Assembly (NCBI GenBank): GCA_045537895.1
Contig: JAZSQI010000036.1
Location: 5,157-69,156 of the forward strand
From: Clostridia bacterium
GTDB lineage: Bacteria; Bacillota; Clostridia; TANB77; CAG-465
Reading direction: 5' to 3'
DNA: 64,000 nucleotides
Part shown: positions 46,269-46,493 of the stretch, in pieces
How the letters are laid out: each line of letters opens with the position of its first letter
Numbering within the stretch: position 1 is the stretch's first letter
Notes under the pieces: model-generated
What the model was told of the DNA's origin: nothing
What the model saw: only the letters and a program-made list of their open reading frames with translations
Database searches by the model: none
Program-made: the position numbers and the translations under genes

Positions 46269-46306
46269 AAAAAAGCCAGCTATGTAAAAACTACATAACT
46301 AGCTTT
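46269..46306 (-). terminator. Intrinsic terminator in the leader of the hydrolase gene
   Basis: Minus strand GCTAGTTATGT-AGTTTTT-ACATAGCTGGC followed by TTTTTT. The stem is 11 bp including two G-U pairs. Confidence 0.7.
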
Positions 46307-46355
46307 ATATTTATATTTTTAGGCATGCTAACTAAATCTAGACTATTTCTAGATA

Positions 46356-46433
46356 TTACTTGTGTGTGTGTGTGTGTGTGTGTGTGTGTGTGTGTGTTAC
46401 TCTCTCAGCGATTTCAAACGTTTTAGTTAACAT
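46356..46433 (-). CDS. Candidate 25-codon ORF MLTKTFEIAERV(TH)6K
   Basis: ATG at 46433. The AAGAGGTG SD ends 11 nt upstream. The (CA)18 tract is read as ACA CAC six times, followed by AAG TAA. Confidence 0.4.
   Translation of the reverse strand: MLTKTFEIAERVTHTHTHTHTHTHK
46361..46397. repeat. (TG)18 dinucleotide microsatellite
   Basis: Counted directly: 18 perfect TG units plus a trailing T. Confidence 0.97.
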
Positions 46434-46464
46434 ATTTTATTTTTCACCTCTTATACTCGTAATT

Positions 46465-46493
46465 ATTTTACAATATTCTATTTTTTTATTCAA
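46465..46493 (-). promoter_or_regulatory. sigma-A type promoter (TTGAAT-17-TAAAAT) for the mini-ORF transcript
   Basis: -35 is the reverse complement of 46488-46493 and -10 is the reverse complement of 46465-46470. Confidence 0.55.

Follow-up and report, generated by a model that had tools for sequence, protein, structure and literature searches.

What is a perfect dinucleotide repeat of 18 units doing ahead of an esterase gene in a bacterial genome? The repeat lies in a 64,000-nt stretch of contig JAZSQI010000036.1 from an uncultured Clostridia bacterium (assembly GCA_045537895.1), referred to here as the window, to which all positions refer. On the minus strand the tract reads (CA)18 and falls within a short leader open reading frame (ORF), which is followed by an intrinsic terminator and then by a gene encoding an SGNH hydrolase. 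We tentatively favour, with a confidence that falls short of an even chance, the reading that this unit is a phase-variable transcription attenuator of the Streptococcus gallolyticus pil1 type acting on an SGNH (glycan) esterase gene that is strain-specific and whose product is anchored at the surface. An earlier note on this DNA had offered a slipped-strand switch as one of its options; that proposal was found to fit every sequence feature tested and to have a proven precedent, but the Shine-Dalgarno (SD) spacing and a mediocre promoter count against it.

The tract itself is perfect and, as the earlier note had remarked, very unusual. Tandem Repeats Finder returned TG x 18.5 at 46361-46397 with 100% matches, the sole dinucleotide array among the 96 repeat rows of the window. 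The octamer TGTGTGTG occurred 15 times, in overlapping fashion, within the tract, compared with 0.69 expected for the whole window, and the window total of 16 was reached by none of 100 shuffles. A scan of 911 kb, comprising the window and 86 loci of related Clostridia, recovered a single further dinucleotide run with six or more units, shorter than 14 nt. Since about 0.9 Mb of related DNA otherwise contains no long and perfect dinucleotide repeat, neutral expansion would seem to be rare in these genomes. The locus also shows what is generally expected of contingency loci built on simple sequence repeats, namely a repeat far above expectation located at a gene of surface or accessory function.

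The 25-codon minus-strand ORF that had been reported across the tract (46433-46356) was recovered and reads MLTKTFEIAERVTHTHTHTHTHTHK followed by a stop. The repeat, with a unit length of 2 that is not a multiple of 3, lies wholly inside this ORF, which is furnished with a ribosome-binding site and a start codon, albeit at atypical spacing. In simulations, the chance of an SD and an ATG being open into the tract was 0.024. The frames were derived by rebuilding the region with 12-24 repeat units, and the outcomes of repeat change agreed with those given in the earlier note. When the number of CA units (n) is 0 mod 3, the leader stop falls 5 nt past the tract, and the assembled allele of 18 repeats belongs to this short, ‘low’ frame. 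When n is 1 mod 3 the peptide ends in TSNI, with its stop 12 nt past the tract, and thus stays short. When n is 2 mod 3 (17, 20), the frame runs on for 23 extra codons and its stop, which ends 70 nt past the tract, is placed within the terminator.

The terminator had previously been credited with an 11-bp stem; a hairpin with a U6 tail is present at 46306-46269, but its stem has a 12-bp core containing G/C pairs and is extendable to 15 bp. No other hairpin with a U-run on the window's minus strand is as strong as this one (-18.4 kcal/mol), and in shuffled sequences terminator-like sites numbered about 0.3 per 1.4 kb, counting both strands. It was missed by a simple consensus terminator scan, probably because greedy stem extension consumes three U's of the tail. 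As the next minus-strand gene upstream is closed by a terminator of its own and the intervening gene is on the other strand, the leader terminator has nothing else to terminate. A 7-bp hairpin just past the short-frame stop (46354-46336) was likewise found as described. An antiterminator pairing between 46334-46327 and the 5' arm of the terminator had also been proposed; its 8 bp exist, but the pairing is weak (-5.7 versus -18.5 kcal/mol) and was not predicted in the fold of 46340-46292, i.e. even without the 3' arm of the terminator.

Upstream of the leader ORF, the TTGAAT-17-TAAAAT promoter match named in the earlier note was present at 46493-46465 (9/12). This site, P(leader), is the sole minus-strand sigma-70-type match of at least 9/12 in 45800-47200. 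It lies 22-45 nt within the right edge of a strain-specific cassette that also carries the SGNH gene (see below), and this position just inside the edge is the reason for assigning the leader unit to the esterase gene. The AAGAGGTG SD that had been assigned to the ORF is present at 46452-46445, but its GAGG core stands an atypical 13 nt from the ATG; its GAGGTGA we take to be a 7-nt complement of the 3' end of 16S rRNA. The elements follow one another on one strand in the order promoter-like site, SD, ATG, tract within the ORF, stop, about 50 nt, terminator, 87 nt and gene. The 87 nt are measured from the end of the terminator to the ATG, and the distance to the SD of the SGNH gene is about 75 nt instead of the roughly 85 nt given before.

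If these parts act together, transcription would start at the promoter-like site and the 5' end of the RNA would consist of the short leader ORF holding the (CA)18 tract, followed by the strong terminator and the esterase gene. With n at 18, or at any other value of 0 or 1 mod 3, the ribosome would halt 43-50 nt before the terminator, the hairpin would form and most transcripts would end there (low/OFF). Replication slippage to n = 2 mod 3 would shift the frame and carry the ribosome through the extra codons to the stop at the junction of the 5' arm and the loop, where it would block the hairpin and allow RNA polymerase to continue into the esterase gene (ON). For a (TG)18 tract, what is known of poly-CA/TG slippage in Escherichia coli would lead one to expect a switching rate of 1e-4 to 1e-2 per generation. 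The sequence itself establishes the tract, the ORF with its three frames, the terminator, their geometry and the cassette character of the locus; from these we infer use of the promoter and the ORF, variation of tract length within the population and relief of termination by translation. The target would fit a contingency locus, in that it appears to be an accessory enzyme of the cell surface, lies next to a polysaccharide cluster, is borne on a cassette and has orthologues that are repeatedly disrupted.

The precedent for such a switch is provided by the pil1 and pil3 loci of S. gallolyticus, in which a promoter is followed by a leader ORF made up mostly of GCAGA repeats (22 in pil1, 13 in pil3), a terminator and the pilus genes (Danne et al. 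2014, PMC3894217). The leader stop lies 39 bp before a terminator of -18.7 kcal/mol in pil1 and 33 bp before one of -28.2 kcal/mol in pil3, and an out-of-frame repeat change yields a longer peptide with its stop in or after the hairpin, whereby the ribosome blocks the terminator and expression is high (PMC3894217). This mechanism was confirmed with start-codon, stop-insertion and terminator-deletion mutants (PMC3894217). The Clostridia locus resembles these two in the order of its parts, in a repeat unit that is not a multiple of 3 and is wholly contained in the leader ORF, and in being placed at a gene for a surface structure. Also shared are a short-frame stop tens of nt before a terminator, of around -18 kcal/mol, and an unrelated divergent gene upstream, and the assembled allele is in the short (low) frame, as in strain UCN34. 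The differences are a (CA)18 dinucleotide tract in place of a (GCAGA)13-22 pentanucleotide tract, a long frame in just one of the two out-of-frame classes, and the setting, an SGNH esterase in a mobile-looking cassette of uncultured Clostridia as opposed to a sortase pilus operon, with no sequence similarity between the systems. Furthermore, the streptococcal switch has been proven by experiment, whereas a switch at the Clostridia locus is predicted from the sequence layout.

In the literature searched, phase variation by a leader-peptide repeat coupled to a terminator was described only for these two pilus loci of one streptococcal species. If the favoured reading is true, the mechanism would have arisen independently in uncultured gut Clostridia, as a non-homologous instance in a different bacterial class, and could be driven by a dinucleotide repeat, ON at one repeat number out of three. 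It could moreover control a cell-surface glycan-modifying enzyme on an exchangeable cassette. A repeat within a mini-ORF, a terminator and one alternative frame ending in the hairpin would then constitute a signature for metagenome searches, which would serve in finding stochastic switches in metagenomes of unculturable organisms.

Comparison with relatives revealed that the leader unit and the SGNH gene share a 2.2-kb cassette. The relatives were four contigs (L092-L095) from two other members of the 90% cluster of a neighbouring 81-amino-acid protein, and the cassette is missing from all four, namely L092-L094 (about 93.5% nucleotide identity) and L095 (96.7%). These contigs align to the window up to about 44320-44339 on the pyrophosphatase side and again from about 46515-46535 on the side of the 81-amino-acid protein. 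Between these points their sequence is limited to 365 nt left over from a DUF1016/YhcG gene or to about 130 nt of spacer. The locus is a rearrangement hot spot with three different alleles, and window segment 44323-46541 was found in this genome only. Direct copies of the 9-mer TTTACGTAA, which occurs three times in the window compared with 0.55 expected, are present at both cassette edges (44314-44322 and 46542-46550). In the close relatives the right copy is kept, the left copy is degenerate and other short spacers lie between them. The edge copies suggest that cassettes may be exchanged at a fixed site. A hairpin in the short L095 allele seemed to resemble the leader terminator, but the match scored 26, within background (95th percentile, 27). 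The variability also extends to the other side of the gene for the 81-amino-acid protein. Past its terminator the relatives (L092 at 4305-6969, and L093) have a 188-amino-acid gene and an alanine racemase gene, where the window has a polysaccharide cluster of at least 17 kb (47005-64000), and the conserved gene is thus an island between two variable segments.

The closest SGNH orthologue (L001; ENA ERZ28633511) shares 55% amino acid identity and is found in another organism and another genomic context. Its leader comprises a perfect TTGACA-17-TATAAT promoter and a 35-codon ORF, the TAA of which falls inside the loop of an intrinsic terminator that precedes the gene. The plus strand had no other promoter match ahead of the start of that gene, the next being at 4147, inside it. 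The layout resembles the long frame of the window in having a promoter, a leader ORF and a stop in the terminator loop in front of the same gene family, but it lacks a microsatellite (only A5-A7 runs are present), encodes an unrelated peptide, lies in a different genomic context and is longer and highly structured (z = -5.8). It may be taken as indirect support for a switch acting through a leader ORF and terminator. No alignment was obtained among the leaders of the five orthologues, the architecture is shared by L001 only, and no Rfam family was found for the leaders of L001-L003 or L004. A further orthologue, L096, is disrupted near the N-terminus and was uninformative for the leader comparison.

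Several of these orthologous loci have features of their own. In L004 (3876-3955, 5100-5135) and L005, two independent assemblies, the esterase is split into ORFs of 369 and 148 amino acids with no repeat at the break, and the L004 leader is unusually G+C-rich and structured-looking, with no Rfam match. In L096 (1-330) the hydrophobic anchor is frameshifted and the upstream sequence is unrelated. Together, the L096 and L004 sequences show a gene family that is often inactivated. The L002 orthologue (2948-9581) is located amid at least five tyrosine-recombinase (Phage_integrase) genes and an rve transposase fragment, which suggests a mobile or shufflon-like region rich in recombinases.

A number of findings weigh against a repeat-driven attenuator. 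The case is built on one metagenome-assembled contig, and as the cassette was present in no other assembly searched, no second allele with the tract was recovered. Promoter-like matches in this AT-rich stretch are no denser than chance (5 found against 10.5 expected in shuffles), and SD-ATG spacing is 6-9 nt in 30 of 46 window genes and at least 13 nt in only 4 of the 46. A weak promoter may also lie after the terminator, the candidates being CTGATA-18-TGtGATTAT (46251-46222; 8/12), with a TG extension, and TTGCGC-17-TGaTATAAA (46270-46242), noted by eye. The second was rejected as a promoter, having failed the usual invariants (-35 element 3/6, no T at -7). The best post-terminator candidate reaches 8/12 as against 9/12 for P(leader). 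The long peptide arises from just one of the two out-of-frame classes, and the simulated chance of an alternative frame being open up to the terminator was 0.19. CA/TG repeats are stop-free in all six frames, and ORFs were listed across the tract on both strands, so an ORF across such a tract is cheap. The minimum free energy (MFE) fold buries the leader SD and AUG, which pair with 46325-46336 plus 46324-46321. A leader terminator was absent from the three other readable orthologous loci (L002/L003, L004/L005 and L006). Finally, the mechanism requires a ribosome close behind the polymerase, and coupling of the two is weak in Bacillus subtilis. Nonetheless, the streptococcal precedent shows that a ribosome-dependent mechanism may still be workable in Firmicutes.

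The chief alternative is that the microsatellite is incidental, a recent (TG)n expansion in an untranslated leader or in what is left of a decaying small transcription unit of an acquired cassette, its length being without regulatory effect and the esterase gene being served by its own promoter. We regard this as possible though rather doubtful. The ORF would then be a by-product of composition, and the atypical SD spacing, the promoter match at chance density, the weak promoter candidates after the terminator, the lack of leader conservation among orthologues and the location in a hot spot with three alleles all speak for it. Against it stand the near absence of comparable repeats from related DNA and the combination of an SD and ATG with a strong terminator in which one frame ends, which is jointly improbable by chance. 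A terminator also needs a transcript, and L001 has a leader ORF and terminator in the same gene family. Should the tract prove incidental, this would remain a hot spot at which the exchange of cassettes between strains is documented.

Repeat length could instead act independently of frame and in a graded manner, either by altering the spacing, folding kinetics, processing or stability of the leader RNA or through local DNA topology, the tract being Z-DNA-prone. The tract would be transcribed if P(leader) is used, and it separates the SD and AUG from their pairing partner in the MFE fold, such that its length could set the window for closing the ribosome-binding site. There is precedent in Haemophilus influenzae hmw1A, where a heptanucleotide repeat in the 5' untranslated region (5'-UTR) forms an arm of a long hairpin that is cut by RNase III, resulting in graded expression (PMC12721329), and CA repeats past the start codon have been found to raise translation in Escherichia coli (PMC9031893). 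As in hmw1A, the repeat of the Clostridia locus would be transcribed as part of the leader of a gene for a surface protein and would act after transcription initiation. Unlike that of hmw1A, it falls within an ORF with a terminator downstream, and in folds predicted for n = 6 to 24 the tract was unpaired throughout, with the same structure and energy at every n, so that a structural role like the one in hmw1A is not indicated. The 12-nt inverted repeat that would close the loop is not significant, with about one such repeat per kb and one present in 10% of shuffles, and the tract lies outside the promoter spacer. This 12-nt repeat was also rejected as an RNA clamp, being no better than chance. 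Overall, a frame-independent role is improbable.

The unit could also be a small gene in its own right, whose transcript of about 190 nt (46458-46269), simply ended by the terminator, would be a small RNA with an unstructured (AC)n platform or the mRNA of a (Thr-His)n micropeptide of variable length, a His-rich micropeptide having been the third option of the earlier note; we consider this quite unlikely. A promoter-like site, an SD and ATG and a strong terminator would make a complete small unit, the terminator appears efficient and weak promoter candidates follow it. Set against this, neither a homologue nor conservation nor an Rfam match was found. With Rfam 15 the leader (46181-46540) had no match even at E = 10, and the whole window had no leader family at gathering thresholds. 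The unit travels with this cassette only, its SD spacing is poor, and a peptide of hypermutable length and frame is unlikely to be functional. A variant, which we hold to be very improbable, is that the RNA serves as a protein-binding platform of variable valency formed by (AC)n and a cluster of UAG triplets, slippage tuning a protein sponge and not a frame; candidate binders would be the distal face of a Gram-positive Hfq, which takes (A-N)n, or a TRAP/HutP-like reader of (U/G)AG.

That the tract or its length is an artefact of assembly or sequencing, not present in the organism, might be argued from the single metagenome-assembled contig and the want of a second assembly of the cassette. This is highly unlikely, since 37 nt is well below the length of reads and of typical k-mers, both sides of the tract consist of coherent bacterial sequence that does not differ in composition, the ORF spans the tract and an inverted repeat brackets it, and the edges of the cassette do not coincide with the tract but lie at distances of 145 nt and 2 kb.

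The Clostridia locus shares with the trp, his and thr attenuators of enterobacteria a short leader ORF before an intrinsic terminator, with ribosome position deciding termination, but it differs in having no competitive antiterminator and no amino-acid biosynthesis target, and control would be by mutation (of frame) and not by tRNA charging. Attenuation of the his/thr type, which the earlier note had put first and in which stalling under Thr or His starvation would favour the antiterminator, is barely credible in spite of twelve consecutive Thr/His codons ahead of a terminator and the 8-bp alternative pairing, since the terminator is more stable than that pairing by some 13 kcal/mol, 46334-46327 would not be freed by a ribosome that stalls in the tract, the run of Thr and His merely follows from the dinucleotide repeat, the regulated gene is one for a GDSL/SGNH hydrolase and not one of amino-acid biosynthesis or transport (the pyrophosphatase and pheST genes come after its own terminator), and amino-acid control in Firmicutes is generally by T-boxes.

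Table 1. Positions of the leader unit, the esterase gene and the cassette in the window (n, number of repeat units).
Feature	Position	Strand	Basis or remark
P(leader): TTGAAT 46493-46488, 17-nt spacer, TAAAAT 46470-46465	46465..46493	-	Consensus match; predicted start ~46458
Shine-Dalgarno-like AAGAGGTG of leader ORF	46445..46452	-	Read from sequence
Leader ORF, 25 codons, MLTKTFEIAERV(TH)6K and stop	46356..46433	-	Short frame at n = 18
Inverted repeat, 12 nt, left arm; contains leader AUG	46422..46433	-	92% complementary; duplex -10.9 kcal/mol
Microsatellite (TG)18.5 / (CA)18, perfect	46361..46397	.	Tandem Repeats Finder, fold predictions
Hairpin, 7 bp, AUCUAGA-AAUAG-UCUAGAU	46336..46354	-	Fold prediction
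UAG stop, second short frame (n = 1 mod 3)	46349..46351	-	Frame rebuild
Inverted repeat, 12 nt, right arm; includes antiterminator octamer 46334-46327	46325..46336	-	Repeat scan and folding
UAG stop, long frame (n = 2 mod 3), at junction of terminator 5' arm and loop	46291..46293	-	Frame rebuild and sequence
Intrinsic terminator: 5' arm 46306-46292, 5-nt loop 46291-46287, 3' arm 46286-46272, U-run 46274-46269	46269..46306	-	Folding and scan
SGNH/GDSL hydrolase gene, 560 amino acids, N-terminal hydrophobic anchor, C-terminal hydrolase domain	44499..46181	-	Profile and alignment
Cassette, 2.2 kb: SGNH gene and its terminator, leader terminator, (TG)18 ORF, P(leader)	44323..46541	.	Comparison with four relatives

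In the 560-amino-acid SGNH protein the catalytic blocks GDS, GTND and DxxHP are conserved. It had been called pilin-like in the earlier note, a label which describes its appearance only, as the N-terminus had no match to any prepilin (N_methyl) profile. Among 5.8 billion proteins no relative of more than 57% identity was found, and exact-protein look-ups of the esterase, the 81/84-amino-acid neighbour and the pyrophosphatase retrieved no other contig. Scans of JGI metagenomes with the esterase protein and with the left flank plus repeat gave no match, nor did a scan of IMG/VR, and BLAST searches against phages and plasmids returned nothing beyond three spurious 38-nt Borreliella matches. The nearest match in a genome collection was the metagenome-assembled genome (MAG) ‘Clostridia bacterium’ L007, with a pyrophosphatase of 94% amino acid identity, the further matches being gut and rumen MAGs; synteny of L007 with the window is limited to the stretch that begins at the pyrophosphatase gene.

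The G+C content of the window is 24-32%, and nearly all of its genes are encoded on the minus strand. Upstream on this strand lies the cell-wall polysaccharide cluster, with genes for an LCP protein and a C5-epimerase-like protein and further large ORFs, which is closed by its own terminator (47004-46974). Between the cluster and the repeat unit, the opposite strand encodes the 81-amino-acid protein from a TTG at 46702, with a perfect promoter at 46553-46580. This protein belongs to no Pfam, NCBIfam or PHROG family, and was rejected as a cassette-specific regulator as it is also conserved in relatives without the cassette. Around its promoter, the region 46459-46622 is dense in inverted repeats of the TGTAAT/ATTACA type and has three 11-nt direct repeats (46502-46533), all of which could be operator sites; the portion from about 46535 on is conserved in relatives. 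Downstream of the SGNH gene, after its own terminator, are the pyrophosphatase gene and two large ORFs, which were read as pheS and pheT through the Pfam annotation of L092, a locus of 93.6% identity.

Some minor observations were made within the leader region. The ORFs across the tract on both strands start with MLTK, the plus-strand ORF (46325-46426) reading MLTKSRLFLDIT(CV)n and the minus-strand ORF (46356-46433) reading MLTKTFEIAERV(TH)n, because the 12-nt inverted repeat contains ATG. The plus-strand ORF has no SD, and the shared start was judged to be a coincidence. An inverton was considered and rejected, since the inverted repeat is at chance level, its arms are 85 nt apart (109 nt with the arms included) and no promoter match lies between them; no recombinase gene was found among the adjacent genes (43691-49583). 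The minus strand of 46269-46360 holds eight UAG triplets in 92 nt where about two are expected, the top value of any 92-nt stretch on both strands. Five of the triplets are spaced 3, 2, 3 and 1 nt apart and the cluster derives in part from UCUAGA palindromes, the enrichment having been noticed post hoc. As a HutP site (UAG-N4) or a TRAP site (11 triplets with spacers of 2-3 nt) the cluster was rejected, given its misfit in spacing and number. Elsewhere, skipping-rope RNA (RF02924) was detected above its gathering score in the window at 36489-36559 (minus strand) and at 471-567 (plus strand) of L001, the contig of the closest esterase orthologue.

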